Notes: generated by a model not told the origin, from the letters alone. A stretch of DNA of 64,000 nucleotides from Desulfobacula sp. (GCA_020048635.1 JAIFMF010000116.1:1825-65824), one strand, 5' to 3'. Shown: positions 11,608 to 18,481, counted from the first letter of the stretch. Numbers and translations: made by a program.

Positions 11608-11869
11608 CTTTTTTTCACCCTCCAATGAATTTTTAAATCGACTGATGAATAAGAAAATCCGTGAAATTTTTGTAACTATATACCACATCGCCACTGTTTG
11701 AAAATATTTTTTAATGGTCGCACCTTTAAAAAAGGTTAAGAAAAGGATTGACTTTTTACCGGTACTCCTATCCTAATATTCAAAGGGTCAAGCAGTTTAA
11801 TAAAATAAACGCCGGTTGAACAGCCGTTTAAATGTATTTCAGGCGGGTCAACCCGGTAAATGATGGGGG

Positions 11870-13108
11870 ATGATGATGAATAAGGGCAGCCTTTCACTAT
11901 TTCTGATGATCCTCCTCTGTCTTAGTGGATTTTTCGGATGCCAGGATGAGAAAATTCTGGTTCCCGTCCCTCCGGCAGTGCTGAATGTGGATGACCGGGA
12001 GGTGGTCTTTGGGTCTTCTCTGGCGTTGCAGGGCCATGCCGGATATCTGGGACAGGAAACCCTCAAGGGTGCCATGTGTTATCTGAACCATGTGAATGAA
12101 AAAGGCGGTGTGCAGGGTCGGACCATCCGCCTCATCACCCGCGACGACAGTTATGACCCCCCAAGGTGTCTTGCCAATACCCAGCGGTTTATTATTGAAG
12201 ATAAAGTTTTTGGCCTTTTTTGTTATGTGGGGACGCCGACAACGGTAAAAATTCTCTCCCTGGTCGAAGAGGCAAAAATTCCCCTGCTGGGAATGTTCAC
12301 CGGTGCCAATGCCCTTCGTGATCCTTTTCTCCCGTATGTGATCAATGTCAGAGCATCCTATTATCAGGAGACGGGAACCGCAGTTAATCATATGGTGAAG
12401 GATCTTGGCCTTACCCGGATTGCAGTTTTTTATCAGTATGATGCCTTTGGATTTGACGGCCTTACCGGAACCGAGCTGGCACTTAAAAAATATAATCACG
12501 AGCCTGTGGCCAGGGGAAGTTATGTCAGAGGGACCCACGATATAAAGGAAGGACTTGAAAAAATCATAGAATCCGGGGCCGAGGCAGTGGTCATGATCGG
12601 TACATCAGACCCGTGCGCCAATTTTATTCGAAAAGCCCTTCAAAATGATTTCTCTCCTATCTTTTATATGGTTTCCTTTGTCGGAGCCAGGGAACTGTCC
12701 AGGAATCTGATGAATACGGACACCAATGGGGTGAATATTCTCATGTCCCAGGTTGTTCCCCCGCCAAGGACTCCCAATGGCGGGATATCGCCCAGTGCTG
12801 TTGAATTTGCGAGCCTCCTGGCCAAGTATTATCCCGGAGAAGAACCGAATTTTGTGGGCTTTGAGGGATATATCAATGCCAAGGTTCTGGTAGAAGGGCT
12901 GGATCGGGCAGGAAGGGAACTGACACGGGAATCTTTTCTGGATGCCATCAATTCCATGAACGATTTCTCCCTGGGTCCGGATGTGCGGCTTTCTTTTGGG
13001 TCAAAGGACCATCAGGGCATGGACACCATTTATTTCACAAGGTTACAGAAGGATCGGTTTACCCTTTTAGCGGACTGGACGGAACTTGGCAGGGGTAATA
13101 AGAAATGA
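11870..13108 (+). CDS. Periplasmic (lipo)protein of the type I Leu/Ile/Val-binding family, probably a sensor-associated SBP
   Basis: Signal/lipobox (GFFGC); YLNHVNEKGGVQGRTIRL..RDDSYDP, VGTPT, FTGA, NVRASY, FEGYINA; overlaps the kinase start (ATGA). Confidence 0.88.
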   Translation: MMMNKGSLSLFLMILLCLSGFFGCQDEKILVPVPPAVLNVDDREVVFGSSLALQGHAGYLGQETLKGAMCYLNHVNEKGGVQGRTIRLITRDDSYDPPRCLANTQRFIIEDKVFGLFCYVGTPTTVKILSLVEEAKIPLLGMFTGANALRDPFLPYVINVRASYYQETGTAVNHMVKDLGLTRIAVFYQYDAFGFDGLTGTELALKKYNHEPVARGSYVRGTHDIKEGLEKIIESGAEAVVMIGTSDPCANFIRKALQNDFSPIFYMVSFVGARELSRNLMNTDTNGVNILMSQVVPPPRTPNGGISPSAVEFASLLAKYYPGEEPNFVGFEGYINAKVLVEGLDRAGRELTRESFLDAINSMNDFSLGPDVRLSFGSKDHQGMDTIYFTRLQKDRFTLLADWTELGRGNKK

Positions 13109-15003
13109 TGCGGTATTACGAGCAGGTCTCGTTAAAAAACCAGATTTTTGTCACCATCCTTGCTGTCATTATGATCATCAGCGCCACCATTGCCCTGCTG
13201 GCCCGATGGATCCTTATCTCCGGACTGACCAAGGAGCTTGAACTGCGAGGAATCGCCGTGGCCCATTCCATAGCTGAACGCGGCGCCGGGTTCGTGCTTG
13301 AAAAAAATAACCCTGAGCTGCTCACCCTTATCTTTGATGAGGCCCGGCTCAGAGAGCGTCAGCACATGATCAATTATATCTTTGTGCTGGACCGGAGCGA
13401 TCAGGTCATCTCCCACACCTTTACCATTCCCTTTCCTCTGGAATTCAGCAAAGCCAATCCCATGCCGGAAAATGCCCTGCACAGCGTCCGGCTGGTGGAG
13501 CACGGCAGAGATACTTCTTATGATATCGCCGTCCCCATGAACGAGGGGTTGTATCGAATCGGAACAGTTCATGTGGGATTGAGTAAGGAGCATATTGACA
13601 AGCTGGTTTCTAAGCTCAGGTTTATGTTCCTGGGGTTTATTTCTGCCGTGATCATCATTATTTTTTATGTGAGCCACAGGATATCCCGGCACATTACCAT
13701 GCCCATCACACGGCTGACCCGGATCTCGGATGAGCTCAGCCGTGGAAATTTTGATTTCAACCTTCATTCCGACGAAAACACGATTGATCTTGAAGATAGC
13801 CTTTTTTACAGGAAGAACCAGGGACGCGATGAAGTCTCTCAGCTGGCTGATTCTTTTTTGAATATGATCCGATCCATCCGCCTTTACAGAAAGCGCCTTC
13901 AGGAGTCGGAGTTGAAATACCGGTCTTTGTTTGACTCGGCACCCAATCCGATTTTTGTTGTGGATGCTTCCACCGAGACCATCCTGGACGCTAACCCACG
14001 CGCAGAAGAACTCTATGAATATCCCCTTGAAGCGCTTTTCGGCATGCCGTTTCAAAAACTCGGCCAGGATCATATCAAAGATTCCCTGGTTGCGATCCAA
14101 CCCTATGGGAACAATGAAAATTCAGGAGTTGCAAGAGATTATGTGTATTACCCGAGAATTCTGCATCTGAAAAACGGGGGCCATCCCTTTTATGTCAACA
14201 TGCACGCCTGCCCCATCAGCTATGGTGGCCGTCAGGCCATTGTTGTGGCCATCACCGATATCACGGAAATGATTGAAAAAGACGCCCAACTGGTTCAGGC
14301 TGCCAAAATGAAAACCCTTGGAGAGATGAGCGCGGGCATTGCCCATGAAATCAATCAGCCTTTAAATACCATCAAAATGGGCAGCGAGTATCTGAACCTT
14401 TTGCTGGATCAGAAAAAAATAATCACCGAGGCACAGATCAGGGATATGGTCACAGAAATCAGTGGGCAGGTGGATCGAGCTACGGAGATCATCAATAATC
14501 TGAGGGCATTCGGCAGAAAATCGGATCTGACCATGGAGCTGGTGAGCATGAAAGAACCGATCCAGGGGGTTCTCTCCATTATCGGCCGACAGTTTTCCAT
14601 CCAGAAAATCACCATCCGTCTTGATCTTGCCGACAATCTGCCCCTGGTTAAAGCACATAACAACCATTTGCAGCAGGTGTTTTTTAATCTGCTCAATAAT
14701 GCCAGGGACGCCATCCAGGAAAAGATGGAAACTGAACCGGACCTTTACGGGGATATTCTTGTGCGGACCTATGCAGAGAAGGGCAAGGTCGTGGTTGCCG
14801 TTACCGACAACGGTTCCGGAATTCCGGAACCTGTCCGGGATAAAATTTTTGAACCATTTTTTACCACCAAACAGACCGGAAAGGGGATGGGACTGGGCCT
14901 GGCCATTACCTATGGGATTGTCCGGGATTATGGGGGAACAATTGAGATCGACAGCACACCCGGACAGGGAACAACCTTTTACCTTATATTTTCAGCAGTG
15001 TAA
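13105..15003 (+). CDS. PAS/HAMP sensor histidine kinase (NtrB-like core)
   Basis: Two TMs, HAMP, PAS ([22 protein letters not shown]), H-box [12 protein letters not shown]-box [32 protein letters not shown]. Confidence 0.95.
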
Positions 15004-15050
15004 ACCATCCGGCAGGATAACGAATCACCCAAAATAAAGACAGGACTGAG

Positions 15051-15788
15051 ATGATAGATAAAGAAGAGATGGGACAGGAAAAAATTCTGGTCATTGATGA
15101 TGAAAAAACAACCCTGAAAATGTTCAGACTGTTTCTCGATCTTTACGGGTTTGAGATTCATACCGCAGAGTCTGGTGAAGAAGGGCTTGAGGTATTTGAC
15201 CGGGAGAAGCCGGGAATTGTCCTGACCGATATCAAGATGCCCGGCATGGACGGCATTGAAGTTTTAAAAGAGATCAAACGGCGGGCCCCGGAAACAGAGG
15301 TCATCGTCATTACCGGCCATGGAGATATGGACCTTGCCATCCAGGCACTGAATCTTGATGCGGCTGATTTTATCAACAAACCCATTCAGCGGCAGAGTCT
15401 CGAAAATGGGCTGGCCAGGGCCCGGGAGCGTCTGAAAATAGCCCGCAGCCTTCAGAATCAGGTGAACAGCAGGATGGTTGACAATGCCCTGGTCATCAAG
15501 CTTCAGGGTAATATCAGCGCAAAGAGTGAACAATATCTTAAAGATGCATATATAGAGGCCCTTCAAAAAGGTGTGAAACGGGTAGTCTTCCATTTTGATG
15601 ACAGCACATCCGTGAACGGTGCCGGTATTGCCATTTTAACCCAGCTCATTTTAGAGAGTGAAAAAGAAGGCATTGAGATCGTTATGGCATGTGTCTCGGA
15701 TAATTTTAAGCGGGTGTTCGATATTGTCGGGTTGAGCCGCAGGGTCAGACTCTATGCCACAGTTGAAGAAGCCTGTAAAAATAAATAG
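15051..15788 (+). CDS. Response regulator with a C-terminal STAS (anti-sigma-antagonist-like) domain
   Basis: REC: ILVIDDE, LTDIKMPGMDG, FINKP; STAS: VIKLQG..., VFHF..., NGAGIAIL, FKRVFDIVGL. Confidence 0.88.
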   Translation: MIDKEEMGQEKILVIDDEKTTLKMFRLFLDLYGFEIHTAESGEEGLEVFDREKPGIVLTDIKMPGMDGIEVLKEIKRRAPETEVIVITGHGDMDLAIQALNLDAADFINKPIQRQSLENGLARARERLKIARSLQNQVNSRMVDNALVIKLQGNISAKSEQYLKDAYIEALQKGVKRVVFHFDDSTSVNGAGIAILTQLILESEKEGIEIVMACVSDNFKRVFDIVGLSRRVRLYATVEEACKNK

Positions 15789-15798
15789 TGGGGGGTGT

Positions 15799-16359
15799 AT
15801 GAAATCTTTTTCCGTATCAATACTGACGACGATGATATTAATTTTCTTTTTTTCCGTATCCTCAGAAGCGGAAAATTCACAGCCTGAACCCGGCAAAAAA
15901 CTTGTCCCTTTGACGCTGCCGGCGCCTCTGGACCCAGCCGGCAAAAAGGGGCTGGGACTGAATGACAGAGGGGTTGACTTCAAAATCGCCGATCTCAAAA
16001 CCAGCCTTGTGTTGATGGAAGTGATCGGGGTCTATTGTCCACAGTGCTTTAAACAGGCGCCGGACTTTAATAAACTCTATGAACGCCTGAACAAAGGGAA
16101 AATGAAAGGTCGAGTGGCTATGTTTGCTTTGGCCGCCGGAGGTACGGACCCTGAAATTGAAGATCTCATCAAAAGCGGGCAATACCTTTTTCCCGTGGTC
16201 AGTGATGGGAAATTTGAATCACACAAACTCCTGGGGGAACCCAAAACGCCTTTTACCATCATCTGCCGCCCGGACGGCACCATCCTCTATACCCATCTTG
16301 GGATTATTACGGATATCGACGCCTTCTATGAAGAAATTAAAGGGTTTCTGATCAAGTGA
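15799..16359 (+). CDS. Exported TlpA/redoxin-family thioredoxin-like protein
   Basis: Signal peptide, YCPQC CxxC motif, cis-Pro loop EPKTPFT; ATG 15799 has a GGGGG RBS. Confidence 0.85.
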   Translation: MKSFSVSILTTMILIFFFSVSSEAENSQPEPGKKLVPLTLPAPLDPAGKKGLGLNDRGVDFKIADLKTSLVLMEVIGVYCPQCFKQAPDFNKLYERLNKGKMKGRVAMFALAAGGTDPEIEDLIKSGQYLFPVVSDGKFESHKLLGEPKTPFTIICRPDGTILYTHLGIITDIDAFYEEIKGFLIK

Positions 16360-17999
16360 TGAATGGGACTCCCCTCATACCCAGTGATGTTGACCGCCAA
16401 CACTATCATCTTGCCATCATCCGGGAAACCGCTGCCGAACTTGGCGGCATGCGTCATCCAAAGGATATTCTCGAATCATTTCTCATGTCGGCCCAGGGAG
16501 GGATAGGCGCTCTGGGCGGATTCGCCGTGCTGACAGATAAAATGTCGGAATTGACCCATCTCACTGTCAGGGGGGAGAACACCATTTCCCATGGACAGAT
16601 CAAGGCATTAATCAAAACGGCTTCGGATTATATTCTTTTAAATGCGGAACGATTTCCGTTTTTTATCGAACCGGATACATTTTTGCCGTTGTCTTACGGT
16701 TTTTCGCTAATCCTTGCCTGTCCCATTGAGGGTGACAGACTGGCTTTTCTGGGGCTCGCCCCGGCTATGCATCGCCGGGACTATGACCCTGAAGACCGGC
16801 AGCTCCTGATGAGTCTTTCCTCTCTTTTTCAGATCAGCCTCAACTCAACCCTTTTTTCGACCCGCGTGGAACTTTTGAATGCCGAACTTGAGAAACGGAA
16901 CACGGAACTCGACCGTCAGGTGTTCCATCTCAACGGACTCAGGGAATTGTCCATGGAAGCCGGAGAATCCGTTGATGTGGAGAAATTTCTATCTGCATTC
17001 CTGCCCACACTTCTGGGGAGATTTTCCAGGTCTCAGGGTCTGGTTGTGCTTCACGACCGGGCTGCTGGCGTCACCTGGTTAAAGAGCATGGGCATCGAAC
17101 CTATACCGGCCATGGCGTCTCTGCCGATTGACAGGCTCTTGTTTTTATGTCTTGCAGGGGTTCAGTACAAACGGATACAGCCGCTTCAGGCAGAGCCTGT
17201 CCTCCAGATAGAGCCTCTTTTTTCTCTTATTCCGGGCTTTGTACCGGAAAGTGCCTTTCTCTTCCTTGTAAAGGATCAGATGTATGGGGCTGTCCTTCTT
17301 GGCAACCCTCTGGAAGAACAAAAAATCTCGGAACAGGAAAAAGAACTGCTGTCTGCCTTTGTGGCCCAGTCGGTTCTCCATCTTAAAAATGCAGATTCCT
17401 TTGCTGCCATTGTTGCTTTAAATAAGAATCTGGAAGATCAGAATCAGGCGTTACGGGAAACCATTGATGAATTGACCCGGGCCGAACATCGCATCAGCGT
17501 TCTTGAACTTGCGGCCAGGCGGATTGCACAGATGGTGAACCGAAATGCTGAGAGAATCATGCAGATGCGTCTCCTTGATTTTGTCCTTATTATTGGAATC
17601 AGTATTGTTCTGGGCGCCCTCTTTAACCTGCAAAACCCCAAGGGAATCTCCTTTTTTCCCCAGGCCAGACCGGATGGTATCAAATCCATTACCACGTCAG
17701 ATGCGGATAAGCTTTTAACAGAAGAGAACGCTCTCCTGATTGATGCAAGACCCCGTGAATTTTATGAACTGGGTCATGTGAAAGGGGCGCTGAATGTCCC
17801 ATTATCGCTTTTCGATGCTGTCTACAAAACGCGTTTTTCTAATGAAGATCCGGAACGTCCCCTCATTATTTATGGCCGAAACTTCAGCCGTCTCTTTGAT
17901 GAAGCGGTGGCCCGCAAATTTTTAAATCAGGATCATGAACGGGTTTATCTATTTCTCGGGGATATGAATAATCTCCTGGTTCCAGGGGGTCATAAATAA
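16356..17999 (+). CDS. Fusion protein: two GAF-like domains, coiled coil, TM, rhodanese-like domain lacking the catalytic Cys
   Basis: Two GAF-like segments ending ..EDRQLLMSL and ..QEKELLSAF; coiled coil; TM FVLIIGISIVLGALFN; LLIDARPREFYELGHVKGALNVP; active loop IIYGRN. Confidence 0.7.
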   Translation: MMNGTPLIPSDVDRQHYHLAIIRETAAELGGMRHPKDILESFLMSAQGGIGALGGFAVLTDKMSELTHLTVRGENTISHGQIKALIKTASDYILLNAERFPFFIEPDTFLPLSYGFSLILACPIEGDRLAFLGLAPAMHRRDYDPEDRQLLMSLSSLFQISLNSTLFSTRVELLNAELEKRNTELDRQVFHLNGLRELSMEAGESVDVEKFLSAFLPTLLGRFSRSQGLVVLHDRAAGVTWLKSMGIEPIPAMASLPIDRLLFLCLAGVQYKRIQPLQAEPVLQIEPLFSLIPGFVPESAFLFLVKDQMYGAVLLGNPLEEQKISEQEKELLSAFVAQSVLHLKNADSFAAIVALNKNLEDQNQALRETIDELTRAEHRISVLELAARRIAQMVNRNAERIMQMRLLDFVLIIGISIVLGALFNLQNPKGISFFPQARPDGIKSITTSDADKLLTEENALLIDARPREFYELGHVKGALNVPLSLFDAVYKTRFSNEDPERPLIIYGRNFSRLFDEAVARKFLNQDHERVYLFLGDMNNLLVPGGHK

Positions 18000-18481
18000 T
18001 GCCGGGCCTTCTTTTAACCTGGATCAGACATCCACTTACAGCCCTCATGATCCGGTTTTATATCGGGGGACTTTTTATCTATGCCAGCCTGAACAAGATC
18101 AATTTTCCTGCTGAGTTTTCCGACAATATTGCAGCCTACATATTGGTGCCCCACTTCCTTGTCAATCCCATGGCTGTTTTTCTGCCGTGGATTGAGCTTG
18201 TGAGCGGTGTCTGCCTTGTGGCCGGAATTCGTGTCAGGGCCTGTGCTGCAGTGATCTGCACCCTTCTGGGACTATTTACAACCGCCCTGATTGTTGTGCT
18301 TTTGAAAAAAACGCCGATTGATTGCGGCTGTTTTCAGAATGTGGGAGATCCGGTTTCCCGGGTTACTTTATTTCGGGACTTGGTCTGGCTTGCGATGGGG
18401 ATCTACGTTTTCCGATACGACAGCCTGATTCATCTGGATCGCCTTTTCATGATCAGACCTGAGGATCTGGACGGTCTTTAG
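17999..18481 (+). CDS. MauE/DoxX-family redox-associated membrane protein
   Basis: GGLFIYASLNKI, LPWIELVSG, PIDCGCF; TAATG overlap with the upstream gene. Confidence 0.9.
   Translation: MPGLLLTWIRHPLTALMIRFYIGGLFIYASLNKINFPAEFSDNIAAYILVPHFLVNPMAVFLPWIELVSGVCLVAGIRVRACAAVICTLLGLFTTALIVVLLKKTPIDCGCFQNVGDPVSRVTLFRDLVWLAMGIYVFRYDSLIHLDRLFMIRPEDLDGL

Follow-up and report, generated by a model that had tools for sequence, protein, structure and literature searches.

How might an anaerobic sulfate reducer place disulfide-bond formation in its envelope under the control of an outside signal? The question is raised by six codirectional genes at positions 11870-18481 of the plus strand of a 64,000-nucleotide stretch of DNA from Desulfobacula sp. 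(GCA_020048635.1, JAIFMF010000116.1:1825-65824; the whole stretch is called the window). Assigned with Pfam, the six open reading frames encode, in this order, a solute-binding protein (SBP), a histidine kinase (HK), a response regulator made of a receiver and a STAS domain (REC-STAS), a TlpA-like exported protein, a protein with two GAF domains, a transmembrane (TM) helix and a rhodanese domain (GGR), and a MauE protein. Bacteria are usually assumed to fold envelope proteins oxidatively as a matter of constitutive housekeeping; it took until 2026 for MauE to be recognized as a third DsbB-like route, and to our knowledge no regulation of it has been described. The reading favored here, whose chances of being right seem about evenly poised, is that the operon puts a MauE-type disulfide-forming module under ligand-sensing two-component control through protein-protein contacts, not through DNA binding. 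The original prediction, made from the sequence of the window, had proposed an undescribed system of this general kind, and a search of the literature on the operon's components indeed found no description of a matching operon.

The six genes almost certainly form one operon, because they overlap or nearly abut and because metatranscriptome contigs span two of their junctions. SBP and HK genes share four nucleotides (ATGA, 13105-13108), TlpA-like and GGR genes overlap at 16356-16359 (GTGA), and GGR and MauE genes overlap at 17999 (TAATG), all three where the original prediction had placed them; the remaining gaps are 47 nucleotides (nt) between HK and REC-STAS and 10 nt between REC-STAS and the TlpA-like gene. 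Low-depth metatranscriptome contigs from three freshwater runs together cover the whole run of six genes, bridging the HK/REC-STAS junction (14774-15104) and the TlpA/GGR junction.

The synteny survey across Desulfobacterota that had been proposed as a check finds the genes co-conserved. About 31 loci keep the complete order SBP-HK-REC-STAS-TlpA-GGR-MauE, down to a GGR identity of 27%, and contig ends truncate several more; the complete loci represent at least six genera or families (Desulfobacula, Desulfamplus, Desulfotignum, Desulfomicrobium, Desulfovibrionaceae and Syntrophobacteraceae). Identity to the window proteins spans 54-90% for SBP, 45-94% for HK (against its syntenic orthologues), 47-88% for REC-STAS, 27-79% for GGR and 42-89% for MauE. 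GGR homologues fall into 74 clusters, all annotated as hypothetical or rhodanese-like, and come from Desulfobacula, Desulfamplus, Desulfotignum, Desulfomicrobium, Desulfovibrionaceae, Desulfolutivibrio and Syntrophobacteraceae; a cultured carrier of the operon is found in record FO203503.1, which we take to be Desulfobacula toluolica Tol2. Of 400 genomes sampled evenly over the phylum, five encode full-length GGR; these five, and no others, also encode full-length REC-STAS orthologues, with the two genes side by side each time (Fisher 1e-11, uncorrected for phylogeny).

The redox half of the operon begins with the TlpA/ResA/MauD-like thioredoxin-fold protein (15799-16359). Its start is most likely ATG 15799, behind a GGGGGG Shine-Dalgarno sequence, and not 15754; from this start a signal peptide is therefore present, and the exported TlpA with a CPQC site that had been predicted stands with its start corrected. 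The CxxC active site is found in nearly all syntenic loci, mostly as CPQC. The protein is nonetheless a divergent member of its superfamily and not an orthologue of a named enzyme: the Pfam families AhpC-TSA, Redoxin and Thioredoxin_8 match at 24.8, 22.8 and 20.5 bits, under their cut-offs of 26-27, the NCBIfam ResA model scores 37.6 against a cut-off of 170, and the best relatives in the PDB are ResA, foremost, and StoA (E about 1e-5).

The last gene encodes a four-TM protein of the MauE/DoxX family (17999-18481; Pfam MauE 87 bits, cut-off 27), in which the loop between TM3 and TM4 carries a CXC motif followed by Phe; across 42 sequences, conservation of K33, E66 and C109-G-C111-F112 is 97% or higher, so the CGC noted in the original prediction is a conserved feature. 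MauE proteins of Desulfatibacillum and Caldithrix replace DsbB in E. coli, and this function needs the CXC motif in the periplasmic TM3-TM4 loop (bioRxiv 10.64898/2026.03.05.709764). The same preprint reports that a Lys, a Glu and the Phe following CXC are conserved and that fusions to thioredoxin-family domains make up 8% of MauE entries, whereas rhodaneses, operons and regulation are absent from it (bioRxiv 10.64898/2026.03.05.709764). The redox half had been predicted to be a thiol module, and MauE has since been shown to be a DsbB-like oxidase; by analogy, the operon MauE is a candidate DsbB-like thiol oxidase, and a function of MauE and the TlpA-like protein in disulfide chemistry can be proposed with good confidence. 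A search of the window genome found no DsbB, no VKOR and only two MauE genes, including the operon copy. The other (SCGCF) lies on contig C215 (L068 2858-5331) in a cluster of ArsR, a CcdA/DsbD-like protein, a TM-rhodanese that has its Cys (YCDGESC) and MauE, and a Cys-bearing TM-rhodanese followed by MauE recurs in relatives (L008, L010, L011 and L012). Virtually every locus of the operon family has MauE after the pseudo-rhodanese gene.

The gene before MauE encodes GGR (16356-17999), 547 amino acids (aa) long, a previously undescribed membrane protein with cytoplasmic GAF sensors and a periplasmic Cys-less rhodanese. Its only Pfam match is a C-terminal Rhodanese domain (residues 447-538; 38.6 bits, cut-off 22.2), yet an AlphaFold2 (AF2) model built with 50 sequences (pLDDT, the predicted local confidence score, 84.9) lays out GAF-A at 11-134, a helix at 145-204, GAF-B at 208-315, a second helix at 326-398, the TM helix at 406-426 and the rhodanese at 442-533. 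The top Foldseek matches are the tandem GAFs of PDE6C, PDE5A and PDE2A and phytochrome GAF-PHY (E about 3e-9, probability 1.0); global TM-scores of these matches are low, 0.2-0.3, because the domains are differently arranged. A profile search of PDB sequences adds the GAF of DevS (E 0.003) and, as the best match of the rhodanese, the inactive rhodanese domain of DUSP6 (1hzm, E 4.5e-5). GGR thus has a tandem-GAF fold with long helices and a rhodanese fold, in the layout that the original prediction had given. It has a single hydrophobic segment, flanked by 5.1 Lys and Arg on the N-terminal side against 1.8 on the C-terminal side (mean of 50 sequences), and this bias places the rhodanese in the periplasm. 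Conserved motifs extend through the helix and the juxtamembrane region (D408, N424, P428 and FNxxNPxGI). In the pseudo-rhodanese domain (17679-17969), the loop reads Y-G507-R-N-F-S511-R-L-F-D515; its Y-G507-R-x-x-S511-R-x-x-D515 pattern is conserved in the 50 sequences, and Gly507, at the position of the catalytic Cys, is invariant, in agreement with the predicted loss of that Cys.

Which end of GGR listens and which end acts is suggested by its relatives. Proteins of about 300-320 aa found in a search of the phylum resemble GGR in their helix, TM and Cys-less rhodanese (34-39% identity) and keep the same pseudo-rhodanese loop, with an N-terminal cyclic-nucleotide (cNMP)-binding domain whose phosphate-binding cassette is intact (FGE...PRSAS). 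Their genes (L074 7745-10136; L076 7758-9989; L077 7642-9431; L113 3167-4980) are followed by MauE and a small lipoprotein and often preceded by a TlpA-like gene; there is no two-component triad. Among 1.84 billion proteins, a helix-TM-rhodanese profile recovers 127 cluster representatives at E <= 1e-30, and their length classes fit two GAFs, one GAF, a cNMP-binding domain, or cNMP plus GAF (P0278). In P0307, the whole series cNMP-TM-pseudo-rhodanese-TM-MauE is fused into a single chain, the extra TM keeping the topology of MauE consistent, and the gene for this protein is followed by that of the small lipoprotein. Cytoplasmic ligand-binding domains are therefore exchangeable on a constant TM-periplasmic unit, which argues that the pseudo-rhodanese is the output and MauE its partner; from architecture and domain swaps, the GAFs would be the input module and the periplasmic rhodanese the output.

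What the GAF module would respond to is suggested by the REC-STAS protein (15051-15788; Response_reg 111 bits, STAS 62 bits). Its receiver is intact: D16, D17, D60, T88 and K110, which supply the acidic pocket, the phospho-Asp, the Thr and the Lys, are invariant in an alignment of 36 orthologues, and the neighboring kinase has its H-box and ATP boxes. On these intact motifs, we infer that HK phosphorylates Asp60. The AF2 model of REC-STAS (pLDDT 89; pTM, the predicted TM-score, 0.79) shows a STAS beta-alpha fold at residues 138-242. In SpoIIAA and RsbV, the loop at the phosphorylation site is D-S-S/T-G. Here, the loop N189-G190-A191-G192 is invariant in the same orthologues, with Gly190 at the phospho-Ser position, which bears out the claim that this STAS lacks its Ser; from the substitution it follows that the STAS would be switched by its own receiver and not by an RsbW kinase. 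No HATPase_c_2 (RsbW) or SpoIIE domain was found in the operon or on this contig, as had been claimed for the cluster; RsbW-like (HATPase_c_2) and SpoIIE/PP2C genes are present on contig C3 of the same genome. The module thus has the STAS fold of a partner switch, and neither the phosphorylatable Ser nor RsbW and PP2C. The original prediction called this a degenerate partner switch. It was right about the parts that are lacking, but the switch is better described as rewired, the receiver Asp apparently replacing RsbW and Ser. The idea that GGR is a phosphatase which has lost its PP2C domain has to be given up: its relatives are GAF-regulated cyclases and cNMP-binding-TM-pseudo-rhodanese proteins, not PP2C phosphatases.

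The cyclases supply the comparative evidence for a link between STAS and GAF. The nearest paralogues of GAF-B with its helix are GAF-class III nucleotide cyclases (E 6e-21), and GAF-A matches the same GAF-plus-helix unit (E 9e-10). In three relatives (L016 6600-8884; L017 7440-10146; L018 8094-10284), such a GAF-cyclase is flanked by an RsbW-type kinase (HATPase_c_2) and a stand-alone STAS; four further GAF-type cyclases in the phylum sample (L083-L086) all have a STAS gene adjacent, and an RsbW gene lies beside STAS in the four loci whose flanks reached far enough (L016-L018 and L086). Altogether, STAS is adjacent in 7/7 loci with this GAF-cyclase and in 0/26 with related cyclases that lack that GAF (Fisher 2e-7, uncorrected for phylogeny). 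The stand-alone STAS of these loci shows 45% identity to the STAS domain of REC-STAS from D. toluolica (E 3e-31) and 30% to that of the window, and keeps the Ser (INSGG), where the receiver-fused STAS has INGAG. One STAS subfamily thus travels with one GAF subfamily in two architectures, and the receiver is fused where RsbW and Ser are missing. There is precedent for a STAS protein acting on a nucleotide cyclase: in HsbA-HsbD, the STAS protein pairs with such a cyclase instead of a sigma factor (PMC5085249). The clusters of RsbW, Ser-bearing STAS and GAF-cyclase look like a partner switch that would control cyclic-nucleotide synthesis, and a coupling of the STAS of REC-STAS to the GAF module of GGR, the link that had been predicted, appears likely from this recurrence in an independent architecture. 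Genes for cNMP-binding and LuxR-type proteins also lie near the clusters.

At the head of the operon, the SBP (11870-13108) is a lipoprotein-type Peripla_BP_6 protein (Liv/HAAT; 190 bits) with a conserved lipobox Cys24. Its best PDB relatives, 4kv7 (E 1e-54) and 3lop, are structural-genomics SBPs without a named ligand. No ABC permease or ATPase gene was found in this operon or in any syntenic locus surveyed, so the Liv-type SBP without a permease of the original prediction is confirmed, and the protein is a candidate co-receptor of the adjoining kinase. Cys100 (12167-12169) and Cys249 (12614-12616) are invariant in 34 orthologues. They may form a disulfide, and might serve the MauE/TlpA module as substrate or as redox sensor.

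The kinase (13105-15003) is arranged as TM-sCache_3_2-TM-HAMP-PAS-HisKA-HATPase_c, with HisKA at 40 bits and HATPase_c at 85 bits, and keeps the H, N, G1, F and G2 boxes, including GKGMGLGL. The HAMP and PAS domains had been recognized in the original prediction, which overlooked the periplasmic sCache_3_2 domain. Most HK orthologues carry in the HAMP connector an insert of about 45 aa with four conserved Cys (CPAYxDTxxPCWHFD...CxxC), which in L057 matches the NCBIfam two_CW_domain weakly. The insert is missing from the window HK, where its site would lie at about residues 226-232 (13780-13800), and from the L026 HK; with it, the window kinase may have lost a cytoplasmic metal or redox input.

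Put together, these elements suggest the following path. A periplasmic ligand would bind the lipoprotein SBP, which would act on the sCache domain of the kinase, and the kinase would phosphorylate Asp60 of REC-STAS. The STAS domain, with Gly for the phospho-Ser and switched by its own receiver instead of RsbW, would bind the tandem-GAF/signalling-helix part of GGR, as comparative genomics suggests. GGR would relay the change through the signalling helix and its single TM to the periplasmic Cys-less rhodanese, a step that architecture and domain swaps point to. Finally, the pseudo-rhodanese would contact MauE, the CPQC protein or both, and so gate or redirect disulfide formation; universal gene adjacency and one natural fusion are consistent with this. 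Of the original interpretation, the conserved operon, the output by protein-protein contact and not by DNA binding, the STAS/GAF link and the thiol-disulfide module are supported, whereas the PP2C framing and a link to a divergent chemoreceptor gene are not. A broader proposal is put forward tentatively, with the balance tilted against it: the GGR family may consist of inside-out transmembrane regulators, in which a cytoplasmic sensor, either cNMP-binding or a STAS-controlled GAF, drives a periplasmic dead rhodanese that switches MauE and its thioredoxin partner, so that second messengers or a two-component system would gate periplasmic disulfide formation post-translationally, and the receiver would have replaced an ancestral RsbW/Ser switch in the window lineage.

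Several observations weigh against control of MauE by the two-component system. The halves of the operon are separable: in Desulfobaculum bizertense, no TlpA-GGR-MauE genes lie near SBP-HK-REC-STAS, and in some Desulfamplus loci the TlpA-GGR-MauE genes have no triad close by. GGR is less well conserved than the signalling genes, which could hint at further targets of the latter. A second REC-STAS in the window genome adjoins a DNA-binding regulator of the AAA16-TPR-SARP type, so that transcription may be what such STAS proteins act on. Which way the signal runs through GGR is itself inferred, the P0307 fusion rests on a single metagenome contig, the work on MauE as an oxidase is a preprint on two MauE proteins other than this one, and the metatranscriptome contigs are weak evidence, of low depth and with DNA carry-over possible. 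Separability of this sort would also be expected had a two-component operon and a thiol-redox operon merely come to lie side by side, functionally unlinked, with each half alone in a few genomes; but such chance juxtaposition is scarcely believable, given an order kept in about 31 loci of several families, a gap of 10 nt between REC-STAS and the TlpA-like gene and co-occurrence in 5/5 genomes, and the synteny survey already contradicts it. Nor is it at all probable that the redox genes simply serve the signalling genes, TlpA/MauE forming or isomerizing the SBP's own disulfide. MauE and a thioredoxin-like partner together form disulfides and the two Cys of the SBP are invariant in its orthologues, yet cNMP-type modules of TlpA, pseudo-rhodanese, MauE and lipoprotein occur without any SBP or kinase, the Desulfobaculum SBP has no adjacent redox module, and both GGR and the association of STAS with GAF would be left unexplained.

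The two other alternatives concern where the signal goes. It could run from the outside in, the pseudo-rhodanese sensing a sulfur anion or the redox state of MauE/TlpA and the GAFs then capturing or releasing REC-STAS; GGR would then tune the two-component pathway, for instance by drawing off phosphate or modulating the kinase. Sulfate reducers live amid plentiful thiosulfate, sulfite and sulfide, the rhodanese loop keeps the highly conserved basic residues of an anion cradle (G-R-x-x-S-R), and STAS-GAF coupling fits either direction. Against this, the closest relatives use GAF and cNMP-binding domains for input, GAF feeding a cyclase and the cNMP cassette being intact; a cNMP-binding domain in place of the GAFs would leave no cytoplasmic output, and the pathway would lead to no effector, since REC-STAS carries no additional output domain, which makes this direction unlikely. 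Alternatively, REC-STAS could act on transcription through a distant RsbW-type anti-sigma kinase or the AAA16-TPR-SARP regulator, with TlpA-GGR-MauE as co-transcribed or regulated cargo and GGR answering a small molecule bound by its own GAFs. The RsbW-like and PP2C genes on contig C3 would fit, as would the Desulfobaculum triad without redox genes and the REC-STAS paralogue on contig C164 (L078 4654-9474, minus strand): 44% identical and with the loop SIDKSG, it directly precedes a 1096-aa AAA16-TPR-wHTH/BTAD regulator (wHTH, winged helix-turn-helix; SARP-like STAND), which is followed by a 234-aa membrane protein. In D. toluolica Tol2 and Desulfobacula G016, the three genes immediately precede the SBP gene in an 11-gene string with two REC-STAS (L013 14792-18879 and L080; L014 199-4270 and L081). 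The BTAD regulator family is, however, absent from all five sampled genomes that carry GGR and REC-STAS, and since the AAA16-TPR-SARP regulator adjoins only in Desulfobacula, it was rejected as a general missing output. The STAS subfamily, moreover, tracks the GAF module and not the cyclase or rhodanese domains (7/7 against 0/26), and the operon STAS lacks the Ser on which RsbW kinases act. A transcriptional role for REC-STAS with the redox genes as cargo is accordingly given little credit.

Two-component control of MauE by protein contact would have parallels in parts of several known systems. MauE, with its four TMs, its periplasmic CXC-F loop and its Lys and Glu, lies beside an exported CxxC thioredoxin-fold protein, a likeness to the MauE/MauD pair of methylamine utilization and to DsbB-like MauE. 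Unlike the MauE/MauD cluster, the operon has no methylamine dehydrogenase genes, and the pair is here always accompanied by a TM-anchored Cys-less rhodanese with cytoplasmic sensors, usually by a small lipoprotein and, in this operon, by a two-component system. As in RsbV/RsbW/RsbU, SpoIIAA/AB/E and HptB-HsbR-HsbA-HsbD of Pseudomonas, the state of a STAS domain would decide its binding partner, but the operon STAS is fused to a receiver and has Gly at the phospho-site, RsbW and PP2C are missing, and the protein this STAS would bind spans the membrane and has its output domain in the periplasm. The GAF-helix-GAF-helix arrangement of GGR, which feeds a C-terminal effector through a long signalling helix, resembles the tandem GAFs of PDE2/5/6 and the cyanobacterial CyaB cyclases; in GGR, the effector is a TM helix and a periplasmic pseudo-enzyme instead of a cytoplasmic catalytic domain.

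LuxP-LuxQ and TorT-TorS are SBP-dependent sensor kinases. The operon is similar in that an orphan SBP gene is translationally coupled to a kinase with a periplasmic sensor domain, with no transporter; it differs in the SBP family (Peripla_BP_6) and the sensor domain (sCache_3_2), and the interaction is putative. A membrane protein of the DoxX/MauE superfamily works with a rhodanese in thiol homeostasis in the mycobacterial DoxX-SseA-SodA membrane-associated oxidoreductase complex. The rhodaneses of that complex and of E. coli PspE are Cys-bearing and cytoplasmic (SseA) or soluble in the periplasm (PspE), unlike that of GGR, which is Cys-less and tethered to cytoplasmic sensors. Among solved structures, the best sequence match of the Cys-less domain is the inactive rhodanese-homology domain of DUSP6/MKP-3 (1hzm), a docking module that is likewise Cys-less, although that domain is eukaryotic and cytoplasmic and no evolutionary link is implied.

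If the favored reading is true, sulfate reducers would switch periplasmic disulfide chemistry by protein-protein signalling. The operon and its relatives suggest that anaerobic sulfate reducers without DsbB or VKOR put one MauE copy under signal control through a dedicated membrane regulator, whose cytoplasmic input is exchangeable between cNMP-binding and GAF forms. The operon would also show how nature can rewire a partner-switching STAS from phosphorylation on Ser to phosphorylation on Asp, and would give a pseudo-rhodanese domain a role. The published dsbB-complementation assay in E. coli and the cultured carrier Desulfobacula toluolica Tol2 make a test system possible.

The operon is flanked, by Pfam, by a divergent gene for a methyl-accepting chemotaxis protein (MCP) on one side and a convergent VTT/DedA gene on the other. 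The MCP gene had suggested a link to taxis, which was rejected, as the neighbor is kept only in L026 and L027, two very close relatives. Most loci have a seventh gene, always after MauE, for a lipoprotein of about 105-120 aa that matches no family and carries the motif GRYxA...DGxGxW...PFxW...HT+xGGV (e.g., L013 7573-7926, minus strand; L019 11090-11410); it is absent from the window clade, in which the VTT/DedA gene abuts MauE. Promoter and terminator scans of the locus found no signal beyond shuffled expectation. Upstream of the SBP gene, a block at 11732-11780 on the plus strand (AAGAAAAGGATTGACTTTTTACCGGTACTCCTATCCTAATATT) is nearly invariant in six Desulfobacula-clade loci while the surrounding intergenic DNA diverges. 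With the -35-like hexamer TTGACT inside it, the block is a candidate promoter or operator.

In other lineages, the genes have different company. The Desulfomicrobium operon (L019-L022) and the D. bizertense triad (L070/L071) lie inside a formate dehydrogenase (fdh)/molybdenum-cofactor neighborhood of fdhA, fdhB, fdhD, fdhE, moaA, mobA, moeA and a gene for an HTH_17+PBP_like regulator. A general link to these functions was rejected as lineage-specific, the arrangement not being seen in Desulfobacula, Desulfamplus or others. Beside fdhA in Desulfomicrobium and Desulfobaculum, an IS1595-type Zn-ribbon/DDE gene (267-289 aa) is conserved, which is unusual for a mobile element.

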